Part shown: piece by piece, positions 4,123 through 28,186 of the stretch
How the letters are laid out: each line of letters begins with the position of its first letter
Position numbering within the stretch: the stretch's first letter is position 1
Source: Geobacter metallireducens GS-15
GTDB taxonomy: Bacteria; Desulfobacterota; Desulfuromonadia; Geobacterales; Geobacteraceae
Reading direction: 5' to 3'
DNA length: 32,000 nucleotides
Assembly: GCF_000012925.1 (NCBI RefSeq)
Contig: NC_007517.1
Coordinates: forward strand, 1,380,001-1,412,000
The notes under the pieces: model-generated
The model's database searches: none
Told to the model about the DNA's origin: nothing
The model's input: only the letters and a program-made list of their open reading frames with translations
Program-made: the position numbers and the translations under genes

Positions 4123-4557
4123 TCACGGGCAGCAGCGCAGACACTTGGTCATCTCCAGCATATTCCCGCCGTTAATCTTCTCGTATTTCACCGTATCCAT
4201 CAGCTGCTTGATGATAAAAATCCCCCGGCCTCGGTCTTCAAGCTGGTCGAAGTCGGGCGGGGGGATGCTGTTGATGTTGAATCCCTGGCCATCGTCGAAG
4301 ACCCGGATGAGAAGGTCCTGGTCAGTGATATTAATGTAGACGTGGACCATCTTGTCAGGGTCGTTGGCGTTGGCGTGCTTGATGGCGTTTACCATCGCCT
4401 CCGTAAGGACAAGGTTGATATGGTAGGCCAGCATGTCCCGGTCGCCGTCGTAGCGGTCGAGTTCCTTGGCGATGTCTTCGCCGATCCTCCCGATGAGGCT
4501 CAGGTAACGGGTCTGGTTCGGCACCTTGATATCAACTTCGATCTCTTTCCTGTCCAT
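4123..4557 (-). CDS. Anti-sigma regulatory factor / serine protein kinase (RsbW/SpoIIAB-type HATPase)
   Basis: 144 aa. N-box EAMVNAIKHA, G1 box DDGQGF, G2-like GRGIFIIKQLMD. Lies directly downstream of a STAS gene. Confidence 0.85.
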   Translation of the reverse strand: MDRKEIEVDIKVPNQTRYLSLIGRIGEDIAKELDRYDGDRDMLAYHINLVLTEAMVNAIKHANANDPDKMVHVYINITDQDLLIRVFDDGQGFNINSIPPPDFDQLEDRGRGIFIIKQLMDTVKYEKINGGNMLEMTKCLRCCP

Positions 4558-7900: not shown

Positions 7901-8271
7901 ATGATGGTGATGACGGCCCCGAGCCATTGGGATTTGCCGTAGCGGGAACTGATGAAGTCGGCGATGGAGGTGATGTTGTTCTCCTTGCTGATCCGGACGA
8001 TCTTGCGCAGGAGAAACCACCAGGTGAATGCCATGAGGGTGGGACCCAGATAGACGAGAAGAAAGTCGAGGCCGGTGGTGGCCGCCTTGCCGACGCTGCC
8101 GTAGAACGTCCACGAGGTGTGGTACACGGCGATGGAGAGAGCGTAGACATAGGGGTTGGCGATAATGCTCTTTCCCTCTTCCCGCTTTCTGTCGGCATAG
8201 TACGCAACCCCGAAGAGCAGGACGATGTAGAGGAGCGATACTCCGACCACCAGTTCAATGCTCAGGATCAA
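4969..8271 (-). CDS. Sensor phosphatase: sodium/solute-symporter-like membrane domain + GAF + PP2C/SpoIIE (RsbU-type) serine phosphatase
   Basis: 1100 aa. The N-terminal ~560 aa are polytopic and SSS-family-like. GAF-like segment (LDLAVIRLIDEKGILRVRSYRG...). C-terminal PP2C motifs GGDYYDF, ADVSGHSVGAAL, ANAGHNPPL, LLYTDGITEA. The TTG start overlaps the upstream stop (TTGA). Confidence 0.9.
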   Translation of the reverse strand: MILSIELVVGVSLLYIVLLFGVAYYADRKREEGKSIIANPYVYALSIAVYHTSWTFYGSVGKAATTGLDFLLVYLGPTLMAFTWWFLLRKIVRISKENNITSIADFISSRYGKSQWLGAVITIIAIFGVMPYIALQLKAVSSTFDIICGYPYIQLPLLHKNYPFSLHTNFFAALILSIFSMIFGARRQNSSERRHEGLVAAVAVESVVKLASFLAVGTFITYGLFGGFGDIFSRIDAQGDLLNHLTTLGDPGETTYARWLTTLYLSMGAIMFLPRQFHIMVIENCDENHIKKAMWLLPAYMFLINLFVVPIALGGILHTGGALGADFFVLSLPLQSGHSWLALLAFLGGFSASAGMVMVESVAISTMFVTYLLMPIVVRLTPRPWFPAMLINLKRLCIALVITLGFLYQTVVGETFMLVNMGLISFAAAAQFGPALVGGLYWRRANKVGALTGIILGFILWLYTLLLPSFIMSGRFSRAILDEGPFGIALLKPTELFGLAGFDLWSHSLFWSMLFNVGGYVALSILLPQGDKERDQVRKFVDVFTSDRNGVPWETKRMSKPVTIMQFVNLMSKFIGEKQANTAIAEYLGNREITAQGGVSEFELPKLKRFTEKTLAGSVGAAAAGAIVESYLSDLGSRMEPVYDIFSTVQASLAESREALYVRLKASELINRTLDLQIIMDDLLALILKEFKLDLAVIRLIDEKGILRVRSYRGKGIAAIIGKDWDPESETYIGEAFTANRIQFVNDTQYITKPLSRDLMAREGIKSFAHIPIARKGEHPLGILSVFSKNIVGLFNEPFLDLLESLAGQLAQAVKIVTEMEAREREREEKERILLENARVLKEMEIAKQIQLSLLPSSPPAVQRVELAGRCKPATHVGGDYYDFFLHGANNIDMVIADVSGHSVGAALIMAETRSVLRAQARSDKTAGAILATLNELLHDDLSAAELFITMFYVRYDAERCILAYANAGHNPPLIFREGQRACVELDAEGLILGVKRDVQFEEKIISLQQGDVVLLYTDGITEAQNPAGEFFGSGRLCDILTQNHARPAEAIIETILAEVESFSATSVINDDISMVVFKVFPSRQLMKQNQSAAEPIGVQ

Positions 8272-15668: not shown

Positions 15669-16193
15669 ATGTCAGACAACAACCAGTCCACGCGGCAGCA
15701 GATGACAGAGCCCGCCGTCAACAAGGACAAGTTCGCAATTGTTACCGTCGATGACGAGATCAGGGCTGACGGGCTCTGTCAGTCTCTGCTCAAGCGCTTC
15801 TATGATTCGCTCCTCGAGGGGGGGATGGATCCCCAGGAGGCAACTCTCGTGGCCAGCGGCGCCGATTACTACGTGCGCGATTTCATCGTTGGATACAAGC
15901 ACCGCAATCTCTTCGACGAGCGGCCGGGAATTGTCCGGCAGTTCGCCGGCAACTGGTACATCGTCAACACTATCGAACCTTCCATTGAGGAGCTTGCCGG
16001 ACATCTGCACGGGGTGCGCTCCTTTTACCGCTTCCTCCATGGCCAAGGGCTTGTCAGTGGGGATTTTCTCGCCGTCATGGAGCAGGAGTGCGGCGACGGG
16101 GCTTTTTATGAAGGACGCATCCGGAGCTTCTGGGAGATCGAGGGTGACGGGTATCTTGCATGGGAACGTGAATGTTCACTGAAACAGGACTGA
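15669..16193 (+). CDS. Hypothetical cytoplasmic protein (174 aa)
   Basis: ATG at 15669 with GAGGAG 5 nt before the ATG. This is the 3' part of the chimeric 14292..16193 ORF in the track. Its composition is coding-like, unlike the Arg/Pro/Gly-rich upstream part of that ORF. No recognisable family. Confidence 0.6.
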   Translation: MSDNNQSTRQQMTEPAVNKDKFAIVTVDDEIRADGLCQSLLKRFYDSLLEGGMDPQEATLVASGADYYVRDFIVGYKHRNLFDERPGIVRQFAGNWYIVNTIEPSIEELAGHLHGVRSFYRFLHGQGLVSGDFLAVMEQECGDGAFYEGRIRSFWEIEGDGYLAWERECSLKQD

Positions 16194-16210
16194 AATCAGG
16201 GAGGAGAACC

Positions 16211-17008
16211 ATGAGATTCGCACGACTGCTGTTGCTGCCCCTTATCGTCATCGGAACGTTGTCCGGCTGCGCCGTCAACATGGCGGACATCCACGGTTTC
16301 AACGTCATCTCCCTTGAACAGGAAAAGGAGCTCGGCACCAAGTTCGCGGCTGAGATCGAAAAGCAGTATCCGGTCTATAACGACCCAGAAGCCCAGAAGT
16401 ACGTTGATCGTCTCGGCCGCAGGCTCCTGACCGGAGCCCGGGAGGTGAGCTTCGACTACGTCTTCAAGGTGGTGAAGGATGACAGCGTCAACGCCTTTGC
16501 CATTCCCGGCGGCCGGCTCTATGTCCACACCGGGCTCCTCAAGGCGGCCCAGAGCGAGACGGAGGTGGCGGCGGTCATGGCCCACGAGATCAGCCATGCG
16601 GTGGCCCGGCACGGCACCCGCCAGATGACCCAGCAGTATGGCTATTCCCTGGTCCTCTCCCTGGTCCTGGGGCAGAACTCGAACATGCTGGCACAGATTG
16701 CCGGAGAGCTCTTCGGCAAGGCGGGGATGATGTCCTACAGCCGGGATTATGAGAACCAGGCCGACTTCCTCGGGGTGGAAACCATGTCCAAGGCGGGCTA
16801 CAACCCCCAGGGGATGGTTTCCTTCTTCCAGAAGCTTGATACCATGGGACAACAGAATCCGAGCGCCCTCACCAAGTTCTTCTCGTCGCATCCCCTTACG
16901 TCGGAACGGATCCAGCGGGTTCAGGCGGAGATAGCCCAGCTTCCTCCCCGCACCTATCCGCCTGTTGACAATACCGACTTGCAGAAGATCAGGGCGCGTA
17001 TCAAGTGA
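16211..17008 (+). CDS. M48-family zinc metalloprotease lipoprotein (LoiP/BepA-like, no TPR domain)
   Basis: ATG at 16211 after GGAGGAGAA. Lipoprotein signal MRFARLLLLPLIVIGTLSGC. Zinc motif HEISHAV. Downstream E...DF.G and SHPL...R motifs typical of M48. Confidence 0.9.
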   Translation: MRFARLLLLPLIVIGTLSGCAVNMADIHGFNVISLEQEKELGTKFAAEIEKQYPVYNDPEAQKYVDRLGRRLLTGAREVSFDYVFKVVKDDSVNAFAIPGGRLYVHTGLLKAAQSETEVAAVMAHEISHAVARHGTRQMTQQYGYSLVLSLVLGQNSNMLAQIAGELFGKAGMMSYSRDYENQADFLGVETMSKAGYNPQGMVSFFQKLDTMGQQNPSALTKFFSSHPLTSERIQRVQAEIAQLPPRTYPPVDNTDLQKIRARIK

Positions 17009-17898
17009 TGAACGATCGGGACGAACGCTGGGACCGCATTGCCGGCAAACTGGATACTCTCCTGGACCGGTTTGATCGGTTTCTGGACGGTCATATTCCA
17101 CCACCACCGCCCGACGGCCGGCTCTTCGAGCGCCACCTCGCCTTCCGCTGGCGGCGGACAGGGGAAGGGGGGGCATTTCTGCCGGTGGAGCATCCCCACC
17201 TCCCCGACTTGGACGATCTGATGGGGATCGACCTCGTCCGTGATGAGCTTGTTCGCAACACCGGGCAATTCGTGGTTGGCTATCCGGCCAACAACGTCCT
17301 CCTGTGGGGGGAGCGGGGGACCGGCAAATCCACCTGCGTGAAAGGGCTGCTCCGGCGCTTTTCCGAGGAGGGCCTCCGACTCGTGGAGGTGCTCCGGGAC
17401 GATCTTTGCACCTTGCCTGCCATCATCGCTCCTCTTAGGAAAATGCCGCAGCGCTTCATCCTCTTCTGCGATGATCTCTCTTTCGGCGAAGGGGAAGGGG
17501 GATACCGGGAGTTGAAGGTCCTCCTTGAGGGGGGGATCGAGGAGCGTCCTTCCAATATCCTCTTTTACGCCACCTCCAACCGGCGGCACCTCCTGCCGGA
17601 ACGGATGGAGGACAATCTGGGGGGAGAGATCCATCCCGAGGAGGCGGTGTCGGAGAAGCTCTCCCTGGCCGACCGCTTCGGCCTCAACCTGAGTTTTTAC
17701 TCCTTTGATCAGGACACCTACCTCGCCATCGTTGCACGGTACGCTGAGAAGTTTTCCTTGCCCATGGGCGGGGAGGCCCTCAGGAGAGAGGCTCTGCAAT
17801 GGGCCATCTTCAAGGGGAGCCGCTCCGGAAGGTCTGCGCGGCAGTTTGTCGACGATCTTGCAGGGCGGTTGCGGGTGGCATTGCCGGCGGAGAAGTAG
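17005..17898 (+). CDS. DUF815-type AAA ATPase
   Basis: 297 aa. Walker A GERGTGKST, Walker B ILFCDDLSF. The GTG/ATG start (17005/17008) overlaps the stop of the M48 gene. Confidence 0.8.
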   Translation: MMNDRDERWDRIAGKLDTLLDRFDRFLDGHIPPPPPDGRLFERHLAFRWRRTGEGGAFLPVEHPHLPDLDDLMGIDLVRDELVRNTGQFVVGYPANNVLLWGERGTGKSTCVKGLLRRFSEEGLRLVEVLRDDLCTLPAIIAPLRKMPQRFILFCDDLSFGEGEGGYRELKVLLEGGIEERPSNILFYATSNRRHLLPERMEDNLGGEIHPEEAVSEKLSLADRFGLNLSFYSFDQDTYLAIVARYAEKFSLPMGGEALRREALQWAIFKGSRSGRSARQFVDDLAGRLRVALPAEK

Positions 17899-17901
17899 AC
17901 A

Positions 17902-18000
17902 ATGGCTTACAGAGTACGCAAAGTTACGGTGATAAAGCAGGGGAGGGGCGGATTCCGTCCGGGACAGGCAGGAGCCGACTTGGCCAAGGAACCGTGCTGA
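17902..18000 (+). CDS. Candidate 32-codon ORF in the same frame as hgcA, ending ...TGC TGA; either an N-terminal (selenocysteine?) extension of HgcA or an upstream ORF
   Basis: The ATG at 17902 has GGAG 9 nt upstream. It encodes MAYRVRKVTVIKQGRGGFRPGQAGADLAKEPC followed by TGA. The next 84 nt in the same frame are open and run straight into the hgcA GTG at 18085. Confidence 0.3.
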   Translation: MAYRVRKVTVIKQGRGGFRPGQAGADLAKEPC

Positions 18001-18011
18001 GGCCCCAAGAC

Positions 18012-18028
18012 TCCCGCGGTCAGCGGGA
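18012..18028 (+). promoter_or_regulatory. SECIS-like hairpin downstream of the in-frame TGA
   Basis: U-CCCGC / GCGGG-A stem (6 bp) with loop GGUCA. The stem begins 11 nt after the TGA, so the loop GU falls at +22/+23 counted from the U of UGA. Confidence 0.25.
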
Positions 18029-18084
18029 CCATCAACGAAAATGTCCCTGGCTTTATCCGCTGGCATGAAACTCCTGCCGGCAGG

Positions 18085-19056
18085 GTGCCGATTGTTTCGA
18101 CGGAGTTCCGGTTTGCCGACCGGCTCGGTGCCTGGAAGGCCCGGTGGGGGATCGGGCGGATGTCGTACCTGGTGCCACCGGGCCTCTACGCCATTGGCTC
18201 CCCCGGCCCCGAAGACCCCGTGGTGGTGACCGCCAACTACAAGATGAGCTACGACCTGGTCAGGAGGGAGCTTTCGGGGCGCAACGTCTGGTTCCTCGTC
18301 CTCGAAACCTTCGGGATCAATGTCTGGTGCGCTGCCGGCAAGGGAACCTTCGGCACCGACGAACTGGTCCGTCGCGTGGGAATGGTCAAACTTGCCACGG
18401 TGGTGAAACACCGGGCGCTCATTCTCCCCATTCTCGGCGCTCCCGGCGTGGCCGCCCACCAGGTTGCCCGGCGGAGCGGATTCCGGGTGCACTACGCCAC
18501 GATCCGCGCCGCCGACCTCCCCGAGTACCTCGATAACGGCATGGTGACTACACCTGAGATGCGTCAGCTTACCTTTACCACCCGTGAGCGGCTCGCCCTC
18601 ACCCCAATCGAACTGGTGACGACCGGGAAGTGGGTCGTGCCGTTCGTGGCGCTACTCGTCGTTCTGTCGATCGTTCCCGGCGGGCTTTTATCCTCCCCAA
18701 CCCTTGTCTCTTCGTTGGTTCTCTTCGTGGGGACCGTGCTGGCCGGAGCCGTTGCTGCTCCGGTACTTCTTCCCTGGCTTCCGGGTAAAAGTTTTGCCGT
18801 GAAGGGGGCAGTGGCCGGTTGCTGCTGGGCAGTTCTGTTTATTGGGGTAGGGAGGGGGGCAACGGGATGGCTTGACGCCATGGCCCTCTTTCTCACCGTG
18901 CCGGCCGTGACCGCCTTCCTGACCCTTAATTTCACCGGCAGCACCCCCTTCACCTCCCGCTCAGGGGTGAAGAAGGAGATGCGGCTTGGGCTGCCGATGA
19001 TGGCAGTGTCACTGCTTGCCGGCATTTCCCTCTGGATCGCGGCCCGTTTCTTCTGA
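18085..19056 (+). CDS. hgcA: Mercury methylation corrinoid protein HgcA (minimal extent from the first canonical start)
   Basis: Contains the diagnostic cap-helix motif GINVWCAAGKGTFGT. The N-terminal corrinoid-binding-like domain (PGLYAIG...VVVTANYKMSYDLVR) is followed by a C-terminal block of about 4-5 TM helices. An HgcB-type ferredoxin gene lies immediately downstream. There is no SD in front of the GTG at 18085. Confidence 0.9.
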   Translation: MPIVSTEFRFADRLGAWKARWGIGRMSYLVPPGLYAIGSPGPEDPVVVTANYKMSYDLVRRELSGRNVWFLVLETFGINVWCAAGKGTFGTDELVRRVGMVKLATVVKHRALILPILGAPGVAAHQVARRSGFRVHYATIRAADLPEYLDNGMVTTPEMRQLTFTTRERLALTPIELVTTGKWVVPFVALLVVLSIVPGGLLSSPTLVSSLVLFVGTVLAGAVAAPVLLPWLPGKSFAVKGAVAGCCWAVLFIGVGRGATGWLDAMALFLTVPAVTAFLTLNFTGSTPFTSRSGVKKEMRLGLPMMAVSLLAGISLWIAARFF

Positions 19057-19077
19057 GTCCGCAAGGAGTTGTCTGAC

Positions 19078-19368
19078 GTGAAAGGTTTCTCCTACCTCAC
19101 AAACGTTGCCTCCCTTGAACTCAACCGCGAAGCCTGCATCGGCTGTGGCATGTGTGTGGCGGTTTGTCCCCATGGAGTGTTCGCGCTGCAGGGCAACAAG
19201 GCCGAAATGCAGGATTTCGACGCCTGCATGGAATGCGGCGCCTGCGCCGTCAACTGCCCCGTTGGTGCCATCGAGGTCGATTCGGGAGTCGGGTGTGCAT
19301 CGGGGATGATAAATGAGTGGCTGGCGAGTATCGGCGCGAGGAAAACAAGAGGCGGTGGCTGTTGCTGA
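19078..19368 (+). CDS. hgcB: Mercury methylation ferredoxin HgcB (2x[4Fe-4S])
   Basis: Two CX2CX2CX3CP motifs (CIGCGMCVAVCP, CMECGACAVNCP), an extra Cys in GVGCASG, and a C-terminal vicinal pair ...GGGCC. SD AAGGAG (19063-19068) lies 9 nt before the GTG at 19078. The track's TTG at 19069 abuts the SD. Confidence 0.9.
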   Translation: MKGFSYLTNVASLELNREACIGCGMCVAVCPHGVFALQGNKAEMQDFDACMECGACAVNCPVGAIEVDSGVGCASGMINEWLASIGARKTRGGGCC

Positions 19369-19386
19369 CATTGAAAGCTCTTTCCA

Positions 19387-19415
19387 TTGACTTGCCGTTT
19401 GTATGGTGATAATGA
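19387..19415 (+). promoter_or_regulatory. Candidate sigma70-type promoter for the carbonic anhydrase gene
   Basis: TTGACT (19387-19392), then GATAAT (19408-19413, 15-nt spacer) or TAATGA (19410-19415, 17-nt spacer). Lies in an AT-rich 84-bp spacer. Confidence 0.3.
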
Positions 19416-19452
19416 ATAATTTCAAAAATTTGAACCACTGGAGGGATTGCGC

Positions 19453-20154
19453 ATGAACGAGACGGGAAGAAGAATTGCACGACTCATCATCGGTGTGGCT
19501 GTCGCCGCATCGGCAGCAGTGGCGTTTGCTTCCGAGGGGGGCGTGGGGGTCAGCGCCGATGAAGCGCTCCAGCGCCTCATGGACGGAAACAAGCATTACG
19601 TGGAAGGTCAGATGGGCGCCTGCCGCGAGAGCGATACGGCGAAACGGGAAGGGTTGGCAAAGGGGCAGAAACCCTATGCGATCATTCTCTCCTGTTCCGA
19701 TTCGCGGGTTCCGCCCGAGATCATTTTCGACAAGTCCATGGGTGAGCTGTTCGTGGTGCGGGTTGCCGGCAACATCCCCGATCCCGTCGTTCTCGGGAGC
19801 ATCGAATACGCTGCCGAGCACATTGGTTCTCCCCTCATCATGGTGCTCGGACACGAGCGCTGCGGTGCCGTGACCGCCACCGTCGACAGCAAGGGGAAGG
19901 CTGAAGGGAATATCGGCGCTCTGGTGAAGACCATCGCTCCTGCCGTCCAGAAGGTTAAAAAGGCAATGAAAGGCAAGCCCAAGGCAGAGTTGGTGGAAGC
20001 TGCCTGCGATGCCAACGTCAAGCTCGTTGCGGCCAATATCACCAAGAAGTCGCCGGTCGTTGCCAAGCTCGTCAAGGAAGGGAAGATGAAGATCGTGACC
20101 GCCAAGTACGATCTTGACGACGGGAAGGTAACCCTCTTCGAGGCAAAAAAGTAG
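19453..20154 (+). CDS. Beta-class carbonic anhydrase with N-terminal export signal
   Basis: ATG at 19453, 6 nt after GGAGGGA. Signal-like N-terminus with an RR pair (GRRIARLIIGVAVAASAAVAFA). Beta-CA zinc ligand motifs CSDSRV and HERCGAV. Confidence 0.9.
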   Translation: MNETGRRIARLIIGVAVAASAAVAFASEGGVGVSADEALQRLMDGNKHYVEGQMGACRESDTAKREGLAKGQKPYAIILSCSDSRVPPEIIFDKSMGELFVVRVAGNIPDPVVLGSIEYAAEHIGSPLIMVLGHERCGAVTATVDSKGKAEGNIGALVKTIAPAVQKVKKAMKGKPKAELVEAACDANVKLVAANITKKSPVVAKLVKEGKMKIVTAKYDLDDGKVTLFEAKK

Positions 20155-20190
20155 CGACACCTGCCGGCACCACTGTGCTGCATCGTAAAG

Positions 20191-20215
20191 AAAAGCCCGC
20201 TTCCGCGGGCTTTTT
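20191..20215. terminator. Bidirectional intrinsic terminator shared by convergent genes
   Basis: A4-GCCCGC-TTCC-GCGGGC-T5 (stem 20195-20200 / 20205-20210). It serves the carbonic anhydrase gene (+) and touches the stop codon of the histidine kinase gene (-). Confidence 0.8.
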
Positions 20216-22179
20216 CAGTTCTGTAATACCTCTTTGATCTTTGCCAGGAGTTCGTCCGGTTTCACCGGTTTCGCTATGAAGTTGATCCCCTCGTCGAGGA
20301 CCCCTTTCCGGCTGATGATGTCCTGGGTGTAGCCGCTGATGAAGAGCGCCTTCATCTCCGGCCGGATGTTCCGGATCTCTTCATAGACGGACTGGCCGTT
20401 CCTTTTGGGCATAACCACATCGAGAAGCAGAAGGTCTATCCGGGTGCTGTTCTCCATGAACCGCCGGACAGCCTCGGCACCGTCGCTCGCTTCGATGACG
20501 GTGTAGCCGTTGCGTTCAAGAACGAGCTTCGAGAGCTTGCGCACGTCCCGGTCGTCTTCGGCTATCAGGATGGTCTCCTGGTTCCCCTGGGCGGCCGCCG
20601 TTGCGTCGCGGTGCTCCGTGGTCTCCTTTGGCGCCACGATGGGAAGGTAAATTCTGACGGCAGTTCCTTTCCCTATCTCTGAATCAACGGTGATGAATCC
20701 CTCGTGCTGCTTGACGATGCCGTAGACCATGGAGAGGCCGAGCCCTGTTCCCTTGCCGACCTCCTTGGTGGTGAAGAAGGGGTCGAAGATGCGTTCCTGT
20801 GTTTCGCAGTCCATGCCGGTGCCCGAATCTGCAATGGTCAGAATTGCGTAGTAGCCGGTTTTTCCCTTTTCAAGGGGACCGAAGAAATCTTCTTCCAGGA
20901 AGTCGCTCCCCGTCGTAACAGTAAGCGTGCCGCCGTCCGGCATGGCGTCGCGGGCGTTTGTCACGAGATTCATCAGGATCTGGTCGATTTGCCCCGCATC
21001 CACATGGCACACGAGGGGTTCGCTGGAGAGCGAGGTTACAAAGGTGATATCCTCGCTCACCAGTCGATGGAGAAGTTTCTCTATACCCTTCACAATGTCA
21101 TTCAGATTCGTCGGGTGAGGAGAGATTACCTGCTTCCTGCCGAAGGCGAGGAGCCGTTTGACGAGGTTGGTGGCCCGGTCAGCGGCTGAGAGAATCTGTT
21201 CCACGTAAATGCGATAGGGGTTGTCAGTCTTGAGGCTGCGCTGCAGAAGCGTTCCGAAGCCAACGATGGCAGTGAGTATGTTGTTGAAATCGTGGGCTAC
21301 CCCCCCGGCAAGTGTTCCGATAGCCTCCATCTTCTGGGCATGGCGGAGTTCCTCGGCCAGGAGTTCCTTCTCGGCCTCACGGGTTTTCAGTGTAGTGCCC
21401 AGGTGGTTGAACGCCGTGGCGAGCCGGCCGATCTCATCCTTCGATTCCACGGGGACAGGCTCGAATGAACCAGAACTTTCGAGAACCCTGATCCCTTCGG
21501 TGAGTCGGTCGAGGGGGCGCGTAATTCTACGGGTTATGACGTAGGTGAAGAAGGTGCCGAGGAGGAGAAAGCCCGCTGCCATGAGGACGCTTGTGTAGAG
21601 GAGCGTGTCGAGTTTTTTCCCGAGAAGGCTCTTGTCGACGATGATTCGCGCATAACCGATAACGCGGGGCGTTGGCCGTGGGGGTTGGTCGAGGAACAAT
21701 GATCCGTCCGTGGGGAAGGATGAACTCGACAGTACTGGTGCCCAGAACTCGAAGATGTCATCTCCCTCGAAGACCGAGGGCTCGGTTGTCCCTTTCAGCC
21801 GTTCGAAGCGGGTGCTCCAATGGGGAAAGGCCCGGCCGGAATTGTTGATAACACTCTTGTGTGCCTGTTCCTGGAGTGCTTTACCTTCTGCCGTCACGAT
21901 GGTGACAAAAAGGACTCCTTCGTGTTCCAGAATACCCTGGATGGGGTCCCGCAGAAGTTCTGCATTTTCGGCAAAAACACCGAGACGGGTATTGTGGGCC
22001 AGGAGTCTCGCCAGGAGTTTCCCCTCGTTGACCAGACTATCCCTCAGGGCGCTTCGCTGTTGCTGGAAGAAGAAAACCGTAAACGAAATCGAAATTACCG
22101 CGATAAAGAGTGTGAACAGGAGGAAGAACCTCAGTCCCACGCTGTCACGACGGTTTTTCAGCTCGTCGAAAAAATCCAT
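20215..22179 (-). CDS. Hybrid sensor histidine kinase / response regulator
   Basis: 654 aa. Two TM helices flank a periplasmic region. HAMP-like linker, HisKA H-box [11 protein letters not shown], HATPase (DSGTGMD, GTGLGLS), and a C-terminal receiver ([10 protein letters not shown] ... [13 protein letters not shown] ... ISGY). Confidence 0.9.
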
Positions 22180-22187
22180 TCTTTCCC

Positions 22188-23198
22188 CTAGCGTATGACT
22201 TTGGCTCGACTTAAAGCCTCTTCGTTCAAGGAGAGGCCAAGTTTGCGCGCTATCCTGCTGTTTATCGTGATGACCGCGCCATGGGGTTCGCTGCGCGGGA
22301 TGCTTTCAGGAGAGGTTCCCGACTGTATCTTTCTGACCATTTCGCCGGCCTGCCGCCCCACCTCGTACGGATCAACATCGAGCGCCATGAGTGCTCCCAT
22401 CTGAACATACTTATCCGAAAACGTGATGATGGGAATCCTGTTGTTCAGGGAGAAGAGCAGGAGGTACTCGATCGCTTCCGGTGTCAAAAGCGTGGCATCG
22501 GGAAGCATGAGGAATGCCTCGATGTCGCCTTTCATCCCTTCGACAAGATTCAGGACATCGCGTGACGAGCGGACTTCCCGCGCCACGAGGTCTATGCCGA
22601 GAGAGCGGGCCGTTGCCTGCGATTTACGGAAAAGGGCTCCGCTTCGCGCCGGGTTGTACAGGGTCCCCACACGCTTGAGCCGCGGCATTACCTTCTGTGC
22701 TGAAACTAATTGCCGCTCCGGCGCCACGTGCATGCCGATGCCGGTGATGTTTGATCCAGTAGTGAGGGAGTTATGCTGGTCGAAGACCATAAGGTAGACG
22801 ATGGGAGTGTCCTTGATTCTCTTTACCCTGTTCATGGCCTCCGTGCCGATGGCCACAATCACATCGGGCCGTTCATCCCGAACCGCTTTTGCCACATCGA
22901 GACCGTCGAGATCAGACAGGACCAGTTTCCTGAAGTTCCCGGCCACGACGCTTCGCACCCCCTTCGCCGCTTCCTCATAGGGGGCGACCCTGAGGCTTTG
23001 CAGGACGAGCACCTTCTGGGCCGCCTGACTTGTTCCGCCAAGGAGCACCAGAGTGAACGCAAACACGAACGTGACAAGCCTCATGAAGAGGATGGCTCTG
23101 TTCACGTCGCTTGCGCCCAGGAATGGCGGGATCGTGTGATCTTTGCCGAAAGCCCTGGTGCTCTGGATCGAACTATGGTCTTGTCGACGATTTGACAT
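22188..23198 (-). CDS. Periplasmic ABC-substrate-binding-like protein (PF04392-type), probable sensor partner of the adjacent kinase
   Basis: The mature part begins KVLVLQSLRVAPYEEA..., typical of ABC_sub_bind proteins. The start is uncertain: ATG 23198, TTG 23219, or ATG 23084, which would place the signal peptide MRLVTFVFAFTLVLLGGTSQA at the N-terminus. Ends 8 nt before the kinase start. Confidence 0.8.
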   Translation of the reverse strand: MSNRRQDHSSIQSTRAFGKDHTIPPFLGASDVNRAILFMRLVTFVFAFTLVLLGGTSQAAQKVLVLQSLRVAPYEEAAKGVRSVVAGNFRKLVLSDLDGLDVAKAVRDERPDVIVAIGTEAMNRVKRIKDTPIVYLMVFDQHNSLTTGSNITGIGMHVAPERQLVSAQKVMPRLKRVGTLYNPARSGALFRKSQATARSLGIDLVAREVRSSRDVLNLVEGMKGDIEAFLMLPDATLLTPEAIEYLLLFSLNNRIPIITFSDKYVQMGALMALDVDPYEVGRQAGEMVRKIQSGTSPESIPRSEPHGAVITINSRIARKLGLSLNEEALSRAKVIR

Positions 23199-23628
23199 GT
23201 TGGAGGTAATGGTTGCCAATTTTTTGTTTGTCTAAGTCGTTAATTTGAATTGCTTTATAGGCTGGCAATAGTAATTAAGCCCTTGAATGTCCATAAAAAA
23301 CAGGATGTTTGCCGGTGTGCTCCTGATGGGAGCGTACGGTAAAGATAGGGAGTTGTGCGATTTTAATGCCATTTTGGTAATGATACCGAAGAGTTGATTA
23401 TTCGAGAGAGAAATTTCTCTTGCCGGGTAACCCGGAGGAGATTCAATGGTGCTGATTTTTCGATGTATTTAAGGGTGGAAGGGATATTGTTTCTAACATC
23501 TGTGGGATTTGAAAGGTTTGAAAGGAGCTCTTTTTGCATGATCCGGTTTCTTGAAAATGCATTAATGGTTGCAGCATCGTGACAGCGAATAACACTATCG
23601 GGAACTTCTGTAGGGTTGGGGGAGATGG

Positions 23629-25539
23629 ATGTCGTTTCAGGATAAAGCGATCAAGAAACGGATTTCTGTGGCCACGATAGCCTGTGCAGGGGCTGTGCTG
23701 TGGCTCCATGGCTCGGTTGTCCCGGCCTGGGCCGAAAACGACGAGATGAAGGTCCTTGAGATGTTTTACGAGGACAAAGAACTTGTGGTCACTCCCACGC
23801 GGGATCCGAAGCCCATCTCCCAGGTGGCGGAAAACGTCACCGTCATCACCGCCAAGGAGATTCAGGCCCTCAATGCCCACACCCTGGGAGAGGTTCTCAA
23901 TACCATACCGGGGGTCCATGTGGAGCCCCGCGTGACGCCGGGAGGGTTATCCCCCACACTTTCCATCCAGGGGTCCGAGAGCAACCATGTCCGGGTGATC
24001 ATGGATGGAGTGACCATCAACAACGTTTCCGACTTCCTGGCGGATGTGGGGGCCATCCCTGTACAGCGGATCGCGGCGGTGGAGATAATCAAAGGGCCGG
24101 CGTCCTCGGCATGGGGTTCTTCACTGGGGGGGATCATCAACATCATCACCAAGTCTCCGGACGAGGGACGGAAACTGGGCGGAACGGTCTCGGCCTCCAT
24201 GGGTGAGCGTACCACCGGCGACTTCCGCCTGGAACTCTCTGGCACCCGTTCTTCTCTTGGATATTACCTGGCTGCCGACGGCATAACCTCCGACGGTCTC
24301 CTTCCCCATACGGGCGTGGACAGCGGCAGCGTATACGGCAAGATGACATGGGACCCCCAGGAGGATACCCGCGTGTTTGCCACGTATAGTTATTCCCGCG
24401 GGAAAAGGGGGTTGGGGGAGTTTCCCCAGTATGGATTGCGTCAGGAGGGGGACTATGAGCATTTGATAGCAACCCTCGGCATGAGCCATGCCTTGAGTGA
24501 AAGCCTTGATCTGGATATCGCGGGCCGCTTCTCGCACCGCGATTACAGTGACGTTTCCGGTGCCTTGGGCGCGGGAGAGGGATTGAACAACAACAGCTAT
24601 GAGCAGCCCAACCTCGGCGCAAGCGCCAAGCTCGCCTGGCGCACGGGCATTCACAGCGTGATAATTGGAACGGATTACGACAACGGTACCATAGACGCAG
24701 ATTTAAGGGAAAATGGCGGCACCGTTCGCACGAAGACCCATGGCCGCCTGGAGCGGCGGGCGATTTTCGCCAACGACACAATCGTCTGGAACAACTGGTC
24801 GATCACCCCGGGTCTGCGTTACGACTGGACCAGCACCAGCGATGATTTCTTCAGCCCGAGCCTAGGGGTGACATATAACCTGAGTGACCACACGGTCCTG
24901 CGGGCTTATGTGGCCCGGGGCTTTAACGTCCCTTCTTTGACCGCGACTACCGTCGGCGCGCAGGGATTGCAGCCTAACCCTCATCTGGAAATGGAGAAGG
25001 TCTGGTCCTATCAGCTTGGCTTCGAGACGACCTTTCTCAGGTATCTCTGGCTGAAGAATACGGTGTTCCGTCATGATGTCTCTGACTTCCTTGCTTATGA
25101 TGGTGCGACCAACAGTTATGTCAATCAGGGGAAGCAGCGTCGGCAGGGGGTAGAGGTGGAGGTGAAATCCATCCCCTTTTTCAACACCACCATCGGCGTC
25201 GGCTATACATTCATCGATGCCCGTGATCGGCTTGCCGATGAACGCGTGCCGAACATCCCTCGGCAAACGTGGGACGTATCCATAAATTATGACGACCGGA
25301 AACTCCTGCGGGGAGGGCTTGTTGGGCGCTATACCCAATGGAACGCCAGAGAGGATTTTAACAGCCGCGAAAACGCCATGATCTGGGACCTGACCGGAGG
25401 GGTCCGGTTTCTGACCGGGCAGGTATCCGGCGAGATATTCTTCGTTGCCCATAACCTTTTCAATGGTTCACAATATCTCCATTACTTCTTTAGGAATCCT
25501 GGTCGCTGGTTCGAGGGAGGGCTTCGCTTTAACTTTTGA
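23629..25539 (+). CDS. TonB-dependent outer-membrane receptor
   Basis: 636 aa. Signal peptide, then plug region (ELVVTPTRDPKPISQVAENVTVITAKEIQALNAHTLGEVLNTIPGV). Beta-barrel-like alternating pattern. Terminal aromatic residue (...GGLRFNF). Confidence 0.9.
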   Translation: MSFQDKAIKKRISVATIACAGAVLWLHGSVVPAWAENDEMKVLEMFYEDKELVVTPTRDPKPISQVAENVTVITAKEIQALNAHTLGEVLNTIPGVHVEPRVTPGGLSPTLSIQGSESNHVRVIMDGVTINNVSDFLADVGAIPVQRIAAVEIIKGPASSAWGSSLGGIINIITKSPDEGRKLGGTVSASMGERTTGDFRLELSGTRSSLGYYLAADGITSDGLLPHTGVDSGSVYGKMTWDPQEDTRVFATYSYSRGKRGLGEFPQYGLRQEGDYEHLIATLGMSHALSESLDLDIAGRFSHRDYSDVSGALGAGEGLNNNSYEQPNLGASAKLAWRTGIHSVIIGTDYDNGTIDADLRENGGTVRTKTHGRLERRAIFANDTIVWNNWSITPGLRYDWTSTSDDFFSPSLGVTYNLSDHTVLRAYVARGFNVPSLTATTVGAQGLQPNPHLEMEKVWSYQLGFETTFLRYLWLKNTVFRHDVSDFLAYDGATNSYVNQGKQRRQGVEVEVKSIPFFNTTIGVGYTFIDARDRLADERVPNIPRQTWDVSINYDDRKLLRGGLVGRYTQWNAREDFNSRENAMIWDLTGGVRFLTGQVSGEIFFVAHNLFNGSQYLHYFFRNPGRWFEGGLRFNF

Positions 25540-25540
25540 G

Positions 25541-25610
25541 TTGACGAAATTCATAAATTGAATATTATTAATTTTTTTCTTCTTGATTACTTGTGTGCAG
25601 AAAGTAGAAT
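25541..25610 (+). promoter_or_regulatory. Two tandem sigma70-type promoter candidates upstream of the small peptide gene
   Basis: P1: TTGACG (25541-25546), 16 nt, TATTAT (25563-25568). P2: TTGATT (25583-25588), 16 nt, TAGAAT (25605-25610). Both lie in a strongly AT-rich 111-bp spacer. Confidence 0.4.
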
Positions 25611-25650
25611 GACGTTCTATCGGTAAATATCTCACAGGAGGGAGGTACGT

Positions 25651-25779
25651 ATGCAACAGGATGTTCAGAACGTGAAGAATGAAGTGACAGAAGAGGTTAT
25701 GGTGGTGTCGGAGGGGACAATCGGTTCCGGTCCTCAAATTGGTGTCTGCTTCGGCTCGTACTTCCTCATAAGAGGATGA
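25651..25779 (+). CDS. 42-aa candidate RiPP precursor peptide ('geopeptide'-like), not in the supplied ORF track
   Basis: SD AGGAGGGAGG ends 6 nt before the ATG. Encodes MQQDVQNVKNEVTEEVMVVSEGTIGSGPQIGVCFGSYFLIRG: an acidic leader-like half and a Gly-rich, aromatic C-terminal half with a single Cys. Lies immediately upstream of a radical SAM/SPASM enzyme with an RRE-like N-terminus. Confidence 0.6.
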   Translation: MQQDVQNVKNEVTEEVMVVSEGTIGSGPQIGVCFGSYFLIRG

Positions 25780-25800
25780 TAATCACCTGAAGCATGAAGG

Positions 25801-25828
25801 AAGGGGGAGCTATTCCCCCTTTTTTTTA
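25801..25828 (+). terminator. Intrinsic terminator/attenuator between the peptide gene and the maturase gene
   Basis: Stem GGGGGA (25803-25808) / TCCCCC (25814-25819), loop GCTAT, followed by T8. It would give a short abundant peptide transcript with read-through into the enzyme gene. Confidence 0.6.
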
Positions 25829-25885
25829 TGTGTCATGGTGATGGATCGCAATGCACTCCTTACTTTGGCGCCAGGGAGGGCCGCC

Positions 25886-27184
25886 ATGCACCTTTCCCGC
25901 TATCTGAAACGGTACTCCTGCCATGAGCGGCCGGGGCACCTGCTTCTCTTTTCCACCAGAACCGCTGCCATCGCCATCGTTCCCGAGAAGGTCATTGCCA
26001 ATATCGAACAGGGAGCCATCAGTCCGGCGACCGCTGAAACCCTCTCGCGTCTCGGGTTTCTTGTCCCCGATACCGAGGTCGAGGCGGAACAGGTACGTCA
26101 GTTGTTCACGACGATCAATGGGGAGCGCACCGTTGCCACCATCATCGCCGTTCTGAACATGGACTGCAACCTGGCCTGCACTTACTGCTTCGAGGGTGGG
26201 CTGAAGGGGAAGCGGTACATGGATCACGCAACGGCAGAACGACTGGTATCTTTTCTGGACCGCCATTACCTCGCCGAAGGCATTGCCCCCAATCTGGATT
26301 TTTACGGTGGTGAGCCCCTCTTGAGTCTGGATCTGATCCGTTCCATCACCACGAGGCTGAAAGAACGTGCTGCCGGACGTGGGCTTTCCTGTTCCTTCGG
26401 CATGGTCAGCAACGGTACGCTTTTGACCGGAGATGTGGCCTGCGAGTTGGCCTCGCTGGGCGTTACCGGGGTCCAGGTTACCCTTGACGGCACTCGCGAG
26501 AACCATGATCGATACAGACCCTTTGTCTCCGGAAAGGGAAGCTTTGATGTGATAGTGCGGAATCTGCTGGAAGCATGCGATCTGCTCGATATCAGCATCG
26601 TCTGCAACTACACCCAGGAGAATTACTGGGGATTCCCCTCCCTGCTCGATTATCTCCTTGAAGTAGGCCTGAAGCCCGAACGGATTGCTGCTGTCAATTT
26701 CGCCCCCATCTCCCGAATCGGCACAGGGGAGCTTCCCCCCGAGTTCAACGATAGCTGTGCCTCCCACAATATGCCGTGGGTTTACGAATCGCAGCTCTTT
26801 TTGCGTCAGGAGGCTCTGAAGCGGGGCTACTCAGTGGCGAAGCTCCGTCCGCCGCTCTGCATGGTGGAATTGGCCCGTGATCTCGTGGTTACCCACGAAG
26901 GGGAATTGTACAAGTGCCCGGCTTTCATGGGGCGGAAGGGGCTTGCGGTTGGTACGCTGGAAGCGGGCGTCACGGAGTACCGGGAATCTCACAATCTCGA
27001 TCTCTGGAATAACGAGGAATGTCTCGACTGTGAGTATCTCCCCTTCTGCTACGGTGGGTGCAGGCTTTCGCGGCTCGCGCAGACGGGGGAGATTAATGGG
27101 GTGGACTGCCGAAGGGACTACTACGAAGCATCCCTTGAGCGGTATGTCCGGCAAGAGATGGCCAACACGTCCCGTAAACGATAA
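25886..27184 (+). CDS. Radical SAM / SPASM-domain peptide maturase with N-terminal RRE (PqqD-like) domain
   Basis: Radical SAM cluster motif CNLACTYC (CX3CX2C). C-terminal SPASM Cys pattern (KCPAF ... CLDCEYLPFCYGGC ... DC). The N-terminal ~90 aa resemble peptide-recognition elements of sacti/ranthipeptide synthases. The ATG at 25886 is preceded by GGGAGGG at 5 nt. The track's ATG at 25835 lies right after the terminator T-run. Confidence 0.9.
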   Translation: MHLSRYLKRYSCHERPGHLLLFSTRTAAIAIVPEKVIANIEQGAISPATAETLSRLGFLVPDTEVEAEQVRQLFTTINGERTVATIIAVLNMDCNLACTYCFEGGLKGKRYMDHATAERLVSFLDRHYLAEGIAPNLDFYGGEPLLSLDLIRSITTRLKERAAGRGLSCSFGMVSNGTLLTGDVACELASLGVTGVQVTLDGTRENHDRYRPFVSGKGSFDVIVRNLLEACDLLDISIVCNYTQENYWGFPSLLDYLLEVGLKPERIAAVNFAPISRIGTGELPPEFNDSCASHNMPWVYESQLFLRQEALKRGYSVAKLRPPLCMVELARDLVVTHEGELYKCPAFMGRKGLAVGTLEAGVTEYRESHNLDLWNNEECLDCEYLPFCYGGCRLSRLAQTGEINGVDCRRDYYEASLERYVRQEMANTSRKR

Positions 27185-27235
27185 CTTTGCCGGAGACGAA
27201 TTTGATTCCGTGAAGCACTGCTCGATTGACGGGGG

Positions 27236-28186
27236 TTACGGCGCTGTCACCTGCACTACCGAGCTTGTTTCGCCATTGGGGTTAATCACCTGAATCCTCA
27301 GATCCTTATCCGTCGGATCGGCGGGATAGCGCTGGTAGACCAGTTTCGAGCAGTCCACAAAGGTCAGAAACTCCCGTTCCCCTGATGGCGGCGCACCCGC
27401 CCTGAGTCGTTTGCCGGCTCCCGCGTTCAGTCCCACCTGCAGACTGTTTTCCTCCACTACTATTGTTGTTCCTGGCTGGAAATTCTTCCCTTCGATAACC
27501 AGCTTGTAATAGGTGACCGCTGCGTCGCTCCTTGTAACGCTGTAAATTTCCGGGGTTGCCACGATGGTAAGAGTCATGGGGGTGGTGAAGGTGTCGTCAG
27601 GATTTTTGACCTGGACCTGATGGAGTCCTCCAGGGGCCTGGGGGACAGTGAAGGTGAGAGATTGCTCCGAACCGAAGCTGCTCTTCACCACCGACCCATC
27701 GAAAAGCACTTGGCTTGCTGGCTGGAAATTGCGGCCGGTGATGGATAGGACACGCTCGCCCGCAGAGGAACAGACGCTGATAGTGTCGGGAGAAATGGAT
27801 TCGACAAAGGGTTTCGGTGCCTGGATCGAGAAATTGTAGGTACGGCTCGTGGCGCCGTCGCGTTTGAGGAAAAGGGCGTAAAGTCCAGGAGGGAGTTTCG
27901 GTATGGTGAAGGTCAGCAGTTCCGGACCAACGACCGTGGTCGGCACTTCGATTGTGCCCAGAAATGCCGATGTCTTCGCGGTAAAGCCGGTTCCCGAAAG
28001 GGTAACGGTGATATTCGGCTCGCCCTGGGCCGGAATGATGCTCAGGATATTTGGAGCAGGGGCGGGGGCCGGTTTCTCTGCCACCGTTGAGCTTGTCTTC
28101 CTGGACTTGGTTTGGGGGGCGCCCTGGGCGGCCACCGCAGGCAACAGCGCCGCAAGCGCCACCAGTGCAGTTACACGTTGTTTCAT
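27236..28186 (-). CDS. Secreted protein with three IPT/TIG-like Ig-fold repeats
   Basis: ATG at 28186 after GGGAGG. Signal peptide MKQRVTALVALAALLPAVAAQGA. Three ~85-aa repeats of the pattern P.I.SI.P......V.L.G.GF.......F.G......V.....LTF.VP....G...V. Confidence 0.8.
   Translation of the reverse strand: MKQRVTALVALAALLPAVAAQGAPQTKSRKTSSTVAEKPAPAPAPNILSIIPAQGEPNITVTLSGTGFTAKTSAFLGTIEVPTTVVGPELLTFTIPKLPPGLYALFLKRDGATSRTYNFSIQAPKPFVESISPDTISVCSSAGERVLSITGRNFQPASQVLFDGSVVKSSFGSEQSLTFTVPQAPGGLHQVQVKNPDDTFTTPMTLTIVATPEIYSVTRSDAAVTYYKLVIEGKNFQPGTTIVVEENSLQVGLNAGAGKRLRAGAPPSGEREFLTFVDCSKLVYQRYPADPTDKDLRIQVINPNGETSSVVQVTAP

Follow-up and report, generated by a model that had tools for sequence, protein, structure and literature searches.

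The window analysed here, a stretch of DNA of 32,000 nucleotides, carries a genuine hgcA-hgcB mercury-methylation pair at positions 17902-19368, with all the defining residues present (Table 1). The two genes are separate, unfused ORFs, and both products exceed the cut-offs of the curated NCBI equivalog models. In HMM searches, HgcA scored 465 bits against NF040863 (cut-off 275; E-value 1e-139), with residues 1-322 of its 323-residue short form covering positions 1-324 of the 325 in the model, and HgcB scored 127.7 bits against NF040864 (cut-off 99; E-value 1e-37), values that are far beyond chance. These searches support the identification of the pair proposed in an earlier note on this DNA, and the coordinates of hgcA have been corrected. 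HgcA has about 8000 homologues, the nearest named ones being from Geobacteraceae and Desulfuromonadales, and hgcB is found directly 3' of hgcA in 78 of the 80 related loci compared. Collinearity of the window with Geobacter hydrogenophilus extends over 13 kb, at ~89% nucleotide identity, and HgcA is 90% identical in amino acids to that of G. hydrogenophilus DSM 13691; the locus belongs to the Geobacter metallireducens/hydrogenophilus clade.

Table 1. Features read or predicted at the hgcA-hgcB locus, in positions of the window.
Feature	Positions	Strand	Remarks
DUF815 AAA-type ATPase gene	17005-17898	+	Pfam PF05673, 349.5 bits; stop 3 nt before the hgcA ATG
Shine-Dalgarno-like GGAGAAG for hgcA	17889-17895	+	ends 6 nt before ATG 17902; lies within the end of the DUF815 gene
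Full-length hgcA	17902-19056	+	384 codons including Sec33; stop TGA 19054-19056; predicted translation through UGA
Arm N-terminal to the Sec codon, MAYRVRKVTVIKQGRGGFRPGQAGADLAKEPC	17902-17997	+	variable; its only Cys is C32
In-frame UGA, most likely read as Sec (U33)	17998-18000	+	motif E-P-C-U-G-P; from the alignment of relatives
SECIS-like hairpin	18012-18028	+	stem UCCCGC/GCGGGA, 6 bp; loop GGUCA; begins 11 nt after the UGA
323-aa ORF of the earlier note	18085-19056	+	GTG start; portion of hgcA covered by NF040863
Corrinoid-domain matches	18169-18537	+	NCBIfam and PDB sequence matches, short-form residues 29-151; Foldseek 2h9a, 4c1n, 2ycl, 4djd
Cap-helix motif N-V-W-C-A-A-G-K	18319-18342	+	Cys codon TGC 18328-18330
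Transmembrane domain, five helices	18580-19050	+	hydropathy peaks; AF2 model
Shine-Dalgarno AAGGAG for hgcB	19063-19068	+	abuts TTG 19069; 9 nt before GTG 19078
hgcB	19078-19368	+	96 aa, two-[4Fe-4S] ferredoxin; GTG start, stop 19366-19368
Beta-carbonic anhydrase gene	19447-20154	+	Pfam Pro_CA, 152.7 bits; signal-peptide-like N-terminus

The three parts of HgcA that had been described before, i.e., the cap-helix signature, a corrinoid-binding-like domain and a C-terminal membrane domain of several helices, were all recovered. The corrinoid-binding domain has a CFeSP-like fold, as indicated by sequence matches to 2h9a and 4c1n and by the CFeSP domains returned by Foldseek. The cap-helix motif can be read directly in the sequence and its residues are invariant across a 55-sequence alignment; its cysteine, C82 in the short form and C143 in the full-length protein, corresponds to Cys93 of ND132. 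The C-terminal half shows five hydropathy peaks, and the AF2 model of the 323-aa protein (pLDDT 78.8, with the cap-helix loop below 50) places five helices between residues 166 and 322 (166-196, 204-227, 237-254, 262-285 and 292-322 in short-form numbering). This predicted model aligned best, from end to end, with 9a0b_A, the deposited model of ND132 HgcAB (45% identity, E 2.5e-20), and next best with CFeSP corrinoid domains; the Foldseek probability was 1.00 both for 9a0b_A and for the CFeSP chains.

The hgcB gene begins 21 nt after the hgcA stop codon and encodes, as previously reported, a ferredoxin with two CX2CX2CX3CP motifs (C20/23/26/30-P31 and C50/53/56/60-P61) that ends in two cysteines (Cys95-Cys96, codons 19360-19365). 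Its Cys73, about 12 residues beyond the second motif, lies in a GVGC motif and is encoded by TGT (19294-19296), so that this HgcB has Cys where the GVGU form has Sec; the HgcB cysteines are invariant in the family. We favour GTG 19078 as the start because of the spacing of its Shine-Dalgarno sequence and because it matches the 96-aa hgcB gene call on an identical Logan contig. The alternative start at TTG 19069, which would yield a 99-aa ORF, was rejected since the Shine-Dalgarno sequence abuts it. The TGA that ends hgcB (CC-TGA-CAT-TGA) was also considered as a Sec codon and rejected, given that a CC terminus is nearly universal among HgcB proteins and that the known Sec site of this family is position 73.

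Concerning the neighbourhood, the pair is flanked by genes for a DUF815 ATPase and a probably secreted beta-carbonic anhydrase, the same neighbours that had been named before, both now matched by Pfam. A promoter-like site was observed at 19392-19420, ahead of the carbonic anhydrase gene. DUF815 adjoins hgcA in 9 of the 80 related loci and the carbonic anhydrase lies 3' of hgcB in 8 of them, all within one sub-clade. We have therefore rejected these genes as functional partners and regard them as lineage-specific context. Co-transcription of hgcA with the DUF815 gene upstream is predicted. No ArsR/HTH gene adjoins the pair, in line with the earlier note, and this absence is expected because ArsR2 homologues have been found only in hgc+ Desulfovibrionaceae.

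The host is probably a methylmercury producer, a reasonable inference from orthology to validated systems, since removing hgcA, hgcB or the two together puts an end to methylation in all systems tested, among them G. sulfurreducens. Kerin et al. 2006 (Appl Environ Microbiol) reportedly observed Hg methylation in pure cultures of G. hydrogenophilus, G. metallireducens and G. sulfurreducens alike; a search of a limited set of literature returned no report of pure-culture methylation by G. hydrogenophilus. The locus can thus be taken as a marker of a probable methylmercury producer, a use already established for Geobacter. The presence of the genes gives no methylation rate. It could be argued that the pair is a true hgcAB but that methylmercury is an incidental or negligible product here, due to low expression, limiting Hg uptake or another native substrate. 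HgcAB is indeed extremely scarce in the organisms studied, the physiological reason for methylation is unexplained, and the 32 kb contain neither an Hg-responsive regulator nor any other gene related to mercury. However, the deletion phenotypes and the reported methylation by the three Geobacter species speak against incidental methylation, which we consider unlikely.

The ORF at 18085-19056 (+ strand, GTG, 323 aa), which contains GINVWCAAGKGTFGT, does exist, but the start and the length of hgcA that had been derived from it are most likely wrong, the proposed true ATG being located at 17902, 183 bases earlier. The 183 nt between 17902 and 18084, previously taken as intergenic, are in frame and are conserved as coding sequence in relatives, and given this start the true gap between the DUF815 gene and hgcA would be 3 nt and not 186 nt. 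In the alignment, the closest loci keep both the Shine-Dalgarno sequence and ATG 17902. The extended frame is interrupted by a TGA at 17998-18000 that is kept in all 10 close loci. Among the 80 sequences that reach this site (79 loci plus the window; L019 ends upstream of it and was left out), the codon is TGA in 68 and TGC or TGT in 12. Conservation among relatives is poor in the N-terminal 32 residues. In-frame conservation spans the TGA, which is preceded by (D/E)KPPC and followed by GP...VPGF..W..TP.GR, and on both sides it is found at the amino-acid level, with a third-position bias, in the hgcA frame. The Cys-type homologues carry PPCCGP at the Sec position within colinear, uninterrupted ORFs of 384-416 aa, and the length of 384 codons falls within the published range of 363-400 for the selenoprotein form. 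The 384-residue reading of HgcA includes the stretch GPKTPAVSGTINENVPGFIR.

Downstream of the TGA, the 45 nt 3' of the UGA fold with minimum energy (-11.6 kcal/mol) into the SECIS-like hairpin. This hairpin is small and, in a sequence so rich in GC, does not stand out by its stability alone. When a 56-nt fragment around the UGA was folded, the minimum-energy structure was a different one and no better than those of shuffled sequences (z = -0.01). Thermodynamic stability was therefore set aside, and the case was built on the register, the covariation and the comparison of UGA-type with Cys-type loci. A perfect stem in the same register is present in 57 of the 68 UGA-type loci versus none of the 12 Cys-type loci; in shifted registers it is hardly ever seen. 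Along the stem, 96.8% of the cells are paired and compensatory changes are present; changes on both sides were counted in 37 cells versus 13.4 in shuffles, and none of 500 shuffles reached 37. The hairpin was defined in 68 sequences, mostly from Geobacteraceae and Desulfuromonadales. The whole window gave no match in Rfam at the gathering threshold, and the region 17880-18120, searched with E up to 10, gave two chance-level matches only; thus, this region contains no riboswitch or curated SECIS family.

Because of the in-frame coding conservation through the UGA and the UGA-specific, covarying hairpin, HgcA is most likely a selenoprotein of 384 residues, with 17902-19056 as its coding region, and the 323-aa ORF is a classic truncated annotation of selenoprotein HgcA that the earlier note had missed. 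If TGA 17998 were an ordinary stop, HgcA would comprise 323 aa (from GTG 18085) or 298 aa (from ATG 18160), and the upstream sequence would be regulatory or a leader ORF of 32 codons. This would agree with the public gene calls, which give 298 aa for the identical sequence (P0001) and 323 aa for many relatives, with the coverage of only the 323-aa part by NF040863, with the purine-rich GGGGGA that precedes ATG 18160, and with the activity of recombinant ND132 HgcAB expressed from the annotated gene, without the extension according to Haft and Gwadz. Nevertheless, an ordinary stop conflicts with the coding conservation on both sides of the TGA, with the 12 relatives that have a Cys at the site inside one uninterrupted ORF, and with a hairpin that is retained only where the codon is TGA. 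In addition, there is no in-frame ATG, GTG or TTG between 18001 and 18084, GTG 18085 lacks a good Shine-Dalgarno sequence, and one strand of a confident beta-hairpin is formed, in the AF2 model of P0039 (a Cys-type homologue), by the residues from the Sec site to the equivalent of GTG 18085 (position matched by eye). Termination at this codon is thus very improbable. The overall pLDDT of the P0039 model is 62.2, with values below 50 for residues 1-42, the equivalent of the arm, which hints that the N-terminus of HgcA may consist of a flexible arm followed by a beta-hairpin.

In the selenoprotein reading, Sec would be inserted in vivo at UGA33. The window contains no selA, selB, selC or selD gene, and a tRNA scan of it found no tRNA, tRNA-Sec included, so the Sec competence of the host is deduced from its relatives only; Geobacter species are Sec users (SelD, FdhA and others). 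Haft and Gwadz (2022/2023) described the PCUGP extension in most HgcA proteins, including GSU1440 of G. sulfurreducens, and a 2026 review lists HgcA (CU) and HgcB (GVGU) among the selenoprotein families. Since the use of UGA as Sec in the HgcA family was published in 2022-2023, the locus is ordinary and the system is already known; the contrast between UGA-type and Cys-type loci is an independent and quantitative confirmation of the published claim that HgcA is a selenoprotein. For cloning, modelling, HMMs and primers, the coordinates 17902-19056 should be used with UGA 17998 as Sec, given that the 298- and 323-aa models drop the Sec arm.

Taken as a whole, the locus very probably encodes the two-protein mercury methyltransferase HgcAB, with HgcA as a Sec-containing selenoprotein that has a SECIS hairpin. 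HgcA would be made up of four parts: a flexible arm with Cys32-Sec33, a short beta-hairpin, the corrinoid-binding domain and the five-helix membrane domain. Insertion of Sec33 would be aided by the SECIS hairpin downstream of its UGA, and the cap-helix C143 would ligate cobalt. By orthology to the ND132 enzyme, for which previous work has described S-adenosylmethionine as the methyl donor, methyl-Co(III), Co-thiolate ligation and the roles of C93, C73 and C94/C95, HgcB would provide low-potential electrons to yield Co(I), S-adenosylmethionine would methylate the cobalamin to a Cys-thiolate-ligated methyl-Co(III), and the methyl group would move to Hg(II) to form methylmercury. The soft ligands of HgcB, Cys73 and the C-terminal CC, may bind and hand over Hg(II) or methylmercury, and the Cys-Sec arm of HgcA plausibly does so too. 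The arm would not be strictly required for catalysis in vitro, because recombinant HgcAB from the annotated ND132 gene, which according to Haft and Gwadz lacks the Sec-bearing extension, is active in lysates.

The Cys-Sec arm hypothesis originates with Haft and Gwadz. A possible, although doubtful, extension of it is that full-length HgcA depends on selenium at UGA33, with DUF815 perhaps acting as a co-translated accessory factor in this clade. If this were true, Se-replete cells would produce an HgcA whose flexible Cys-Sec arm takes up Hg(II) or sets methylmercury free, whereas in Se-poor cells translation would stop after 32 codons, or would perhaps restart at GTG 18085 or ATG 18160 to yield an arm-less enzyme, and the selenium supply would tune the methylmercury output in Geobacter.

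With respect to related proteins, it is scarcely credible that we are dealing with a paralogue that does not methylate Hg, whether a corrinoid protein of the acetyl-CoA pathway accompanied by a ferredoxin or one of the fused HgcAB-like proteins, as the earlier note had considered against its own reading. Pfam recognises only the generic CdhD family and many database entries label the relatives as 'acetyl-CoA synthase subunit gamma', but the CFeSP model NF003195 gave HgcA 56.4 bits (cut-off 306) and matched nothing beyond the corrinoid domain (positions 324-445 of the 450 in the model), the fusion model NF043039 gave 176.4 and 59.3 bits (cut-off 285), and the genes are separate. The large subunit of CFeSP (AcsC/CdhE) of the Wood-Ljungdahl pathway has a corrinoid-binding domain homologous to that of HgcA. 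Unlike CFeSP, the HgcA described here has neither the N-terminal [4Fe-4S] domain nor the TIM barrel, and it has the cap-helix Cys and the five-helix membrane domain, both absent from CFeSP. The HgcAB-like fusions, e.g., that of Pyrococcus furiosus, contain related corrinoid and ferredoxin modules within a single gene, in contrast to the two genes found here.

A likeness of another kind is found in the SAO selenoproteins SaoL, SaoB and SaoC, which have in common with HgcA a vicinal Cys-Sec motif, a proposed binding of heavy metals and an annotation truncated at the UGA. Their folds are unrelated to that of HgcA and the motif occupies a different position, so that only the logic of the motif is common to them. 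As for the biochemically characterised pair DND132_1056/1057 of Pseudodesulfovibrio mercurii ND132, the equivalents of its C93, C73 and C94/C95 are all present here, and its HgcA likewise has a CU extension. The ND132 genes are preceded directly by an ArsR-like regulator that is co-transcribed with hgcAB, whereas here the DUF815 ATPase gene occupies that place. Finally, the genetically validated GSU1440/GSU1441 pair of G. sulfurreducens PCA belongs to the same genus-level lineage and has the same two-gene order and the same PCUGP Sec extension. The residues that precede Sec differ, AKEPCU here versus DRPPCU in GSU1440, and 25 of the 28 residues that follow it are identical to the published GSU1440 extension.

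The hgcA-hgcB pair claimed in the earlier note was borne out by the HMM check set beforehand: HgcA matches the NCBI equivalog model NF040863 end to end (465 bits; cut-off 275), and HgcB matches NF040864 (127.7 bits; cut-off 99). The two other identities that the note had set as refuting fell below their cut-offs and were not supported, i.e., a fused HgcAB-like protein (176 bits; cut-off 285) and the gamma subunit of the acetyl-CoA-pathway corrinoid protein CFeSP (56 bits; cut-off 306), where the corrinoid domain alone was matched. A search of 5.8 billion proteins yielded about 8000 homologues, the nearest named ones belonging to Geobacteraceae and Desulfuromonadales; many homologues carry the outdated label "acetyl-CoA synthase subunit gamma". 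The C-terminal half of HgcA contains five hydrophobic segments according to hydropathy analysis, and in the AlphaFold2 model (pLDDT 78.8) the N-terminal domain is Rossmann-like and five long helices are present. The top structure-library match of this model, at 45% identity over its full length (E 2.5e-20), is the integrative model of HgcAB from Pseudodesulfovibrio mercurii ND132 that is deposited as 9a0b_A; CFeSP large-subunit corrinoid domains come next, and no experimentally solved HgcA was found among the PDB sequences searched.

The small ferredoxin ORF downstream of hgcA is hgcB. The mechanical ORF call begins at TTG 19069, a start that we have set aside because the Shine-Dalgarno sequence AAGGAG adjoins this TTG directly and lies 9 nt ahead of GTG 19078. 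The latter yields the 96-aa ferredoxin 21 nt past the hgcA stop that had been described previously, with Cys residues at positions 20/23/26/30, 50/53/56/60, 73, and 95/96, and an identical public contig also has a 96-aa call.

As for HgcA, the identity and the motif-bearing ORF stood, but the start coordinate and the 323-aa length did not. The 200 nt upstream of GTG 18085 were aligned across ten related loci, originally looking for a promoter, and coding-type conservation was found to extend about 100 nt upstream of this GTG and to take in an invariant TGA that follows a TGC. Translation from ATG 17902 gives MAYRVRKVTVIKQGRGGFRPGQAGADLAKEPC-U-GPKTPAVSGTINENVPGFIRWHETPAGRVPIVS..., in the same frame as the 323-aa ORF. 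This ATG has the Shine-Dalgarno sequence GGAGAAG ahead, the DUF815 stop codon lies 3 nt before it, and the window sequence contains no in-frame ATG, GTG, or TTG between the TGA and GTG 18085. The site is reached by 80 sequences (the window and 79 loci; locus L019 ends short of it), with TGA in 68 (C-U-G-P in 66) and a Cys codon in 12 (C-C-G-P). Every locus whose contig reaches far enough has an upstream in-frame start and no further stop, and the Cys-type database homologues are uninterrupted proteins of 384-416 aa with PPCCGP at the equivalent place. The start signals at ATG 17902, the lack of an intervening start, the TGA/Cys pattern, and the long Cys-type ORFs support reading the sequence from 17902 onward and the 323-aa ORF as one gene, an hgcA that is most probably longer than annotated and recoded. 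The hgcAB interpretation is upheld with corrected coordinates and HgcA length. The NCBIfam HgcA model spans the 323-aa part alone, and public calls for HgcA and its close relatives (proteins P0001, P0002, P0004, and others) are short, i.e., 298 aa (ATG 18160) or 323 aa (GTG 18085).

The SECIS-like hairpin that begins 11 nt past the UGA is the minimum-energy structure of the following 45 nt (-11.6 kcal/mol); folding energy by itself has no significance in this GC-rich context. The exact-register stem is perfect in 57 of the 68 UGA-type sequences (5/6 pairs in another 9) and in 0 of the 12 Cys-type ones, and perfect stems essentially never appear in shifted registers. In the ungapped alignment, 96.8% of the stem cells are paired, and two-sided changes in three of the six pairs account for 37 cells versus 13.4 in shuffles, a value reached by 0/500 shuffles; slid-register controls were all far worse. 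The divergent loci L057 and L077, with the peptide altered to FSQGG, still retain a hairpin at this place, in a register shifted from the common stem. No Rfam family matches the hairpin region.

According to work on the ND132 enzyme, cobalamin receives its methyl group from SAM, not from methyl-tetrahydrofolate, and the product, methyl-Co(III) with Cys-thiolate ligation, passes the methyl on to Hg(II). In vivo, methylation needs C93 of HgcA and, in HgcB, C73 together with one or more of the C-terminal Cys residues; all their equivalents are present in the window proteins. Kerin et al. reportedly provided, in 2006, pure-culture data on Hg methylation for G. hydrogenophilus, G. metallireducens, and G. 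sulfurreducens. Validated orthologues together with these data suggest that the window's organism would produce methylmercury. In the model of the Cys-type homologue P0039, residues 1-42 (PPCCGP included) have low confidence and residues 53-67 form a confident beta-hairpin; the Cys-Sec stretch would fit an arm that is flexible, binds metal, and is anchored to the corrinoid domain. Among the N-terminal arms of 79 relatives, extra CC pairs occur in 9/12 of the Cys type versus 2/67 of the Sec type, and in the window (17902-17997) and the four relatives nearest to it the arm has no Cys besides the one adjoining Sec. Lysates with recombinant ND132 HgcAB from the annotated gene, which according to Haft and Gwadz does not include the Sec-bearing extension, show activity; the arm is thus not essential for catalysis in vitro.

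Features of the window and their coordinates
Feature	Position	Strand	Remarks
ORF	68-1813	+	581 aa, no Pfam match; by eye coiled-coil, ATPase-like C-terminus
RsbW-like ORF	4123-4557	-	anti-sigma kinase type, judged by eye from translation
Symporter-phosphatase protein	4969-8271	-	1100 aa; sodium:solute symporter, GAF, SpoIIE/PP2C phosphatase domains
174-aa ORF	15669-16193	+	no Pfam match
M48 peptidase and DUF815 genes	16172-17898		variably present
DUF815 ATPase	17005-17898	+	flanks hgcA upstream
SECIS-like hairpin	18012-18028	+	UCCCGC-GGUCA-GCGGGA, 6 bp
hgcA short ORF	18085-19056	+	323 codons, GTG start (ORF table, raw sequence); contains GINVWCAAGKGTFGT
hgcB Shine-Dalgarno	19063-19068		AAGGAG
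Sigma-70-like promoter match	19392-19420	+	between hgcB and carbonic anhydrase gene
Beta-carbonic anhydrase	19447-20154	+	signal-peptide-like N-terminus; flanks hgcB downstream
7-kb block	20223-27237		hybrid histidine kinase/response regulator, ABC substrate-binding protein, TonB-dependent receptor, radical SAM protein

The DUF815 ATPase and beta-carbonic anhydrase genes were confirmed as neighbours of the pair, and when the window's main ORFs were scanned with Pfam, no ArsR-type regulator, which the earlier note had not seen next to the pair either, and no further mercury gene turned up. The missing ArsR gene is expected, since ArsR2 homologues have been found only in hgc+ Desulfovibrionaceae, always immediately upstream of hgcAB. 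Among genomes, Geobacter hydrogenophilus DSM 13691 matches best: its HgcA is 90% identical in amino acids, and the entire 13-kb locus runs collinear with the window, with nucleotide identity of about 89%. Among 80 related hgcA loci, hgcB directly follows hgcA in 78, and DUF815 lies upstream in nine, seven of which (L001-L004, L033, L054, L069) have the complete DUF815-hgcAB-carbonic anhydrase order; L075 has DUF815 without hgcB or carbonic anhydrase, and L005 has carbonic anhydrase without DUF815. Given this limited occurrence, both neighbours are lineage context, outside the mercury-methylation system.

In the same sub-clade, the 174-aa ORF is conserved ahead of hgcA, at 56-87% identity. Between it and hgcA, the M48 and DUF815 genes are both absent in L005, and DUF815 occurs without M48 in L033, L054, and L069; wherever found, DUF815 is packed tightly against the Sec-hgcA start. 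L075:5845-8000 (MAG Geobacteraceae GL140_3_metabat_43) has a Sec-type hgcA after M48 and DUF815 genes, like the window; the following 6 kb yielded neither hgcB nor carbonic anhydrase, and no long ORF lies right behind hgcA. The locus may be degenerate or wrongly assembled. The promoter match is the sole one within 17700-20300, and no terminator-like hairpin came up in the scan of the hgcB-carbonic anhydrase gap; the carbonic anhydrase gene may have its own promoter, and hgcAB is probably transcribed from upstream. Directly downstream of the carbonic anhydrase gene, the 7-kb block missing in the close relative L003 (L003:8141-8172; 83% nucleotide identity) is an insertion or deletion. Elsewhere, the RsbW-like ORF and the adjoining symporter-phosphatase protein look like a membrane-linked partner-switching module.

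Neither the HgcAB system nor its selenoprotein form in Geobacter is new. Haft and Gwadz (bioRxiv 2022; J Bacteriol 2023) described most HgcA as selenoproteins with an N-terminal extension earlier missed, in which the PCUGP motif is invariant, and gave the extension of GSU1440, the HgcA of Geobacter sulfurreducens; 25 of the 28 residues after Sec are identical in the window HgcA. Sec use is documented for Geobacter metallireducens, G. sulfurreducens, and G. uraniireducens, and no Sec machinery genes lie within the window. In a 2026 review, HgcA (CU) and HgcB (GVGU) appear in the list of selenoprotein families of prokaryotes; the window HgcB has the Cys form, GVGC.
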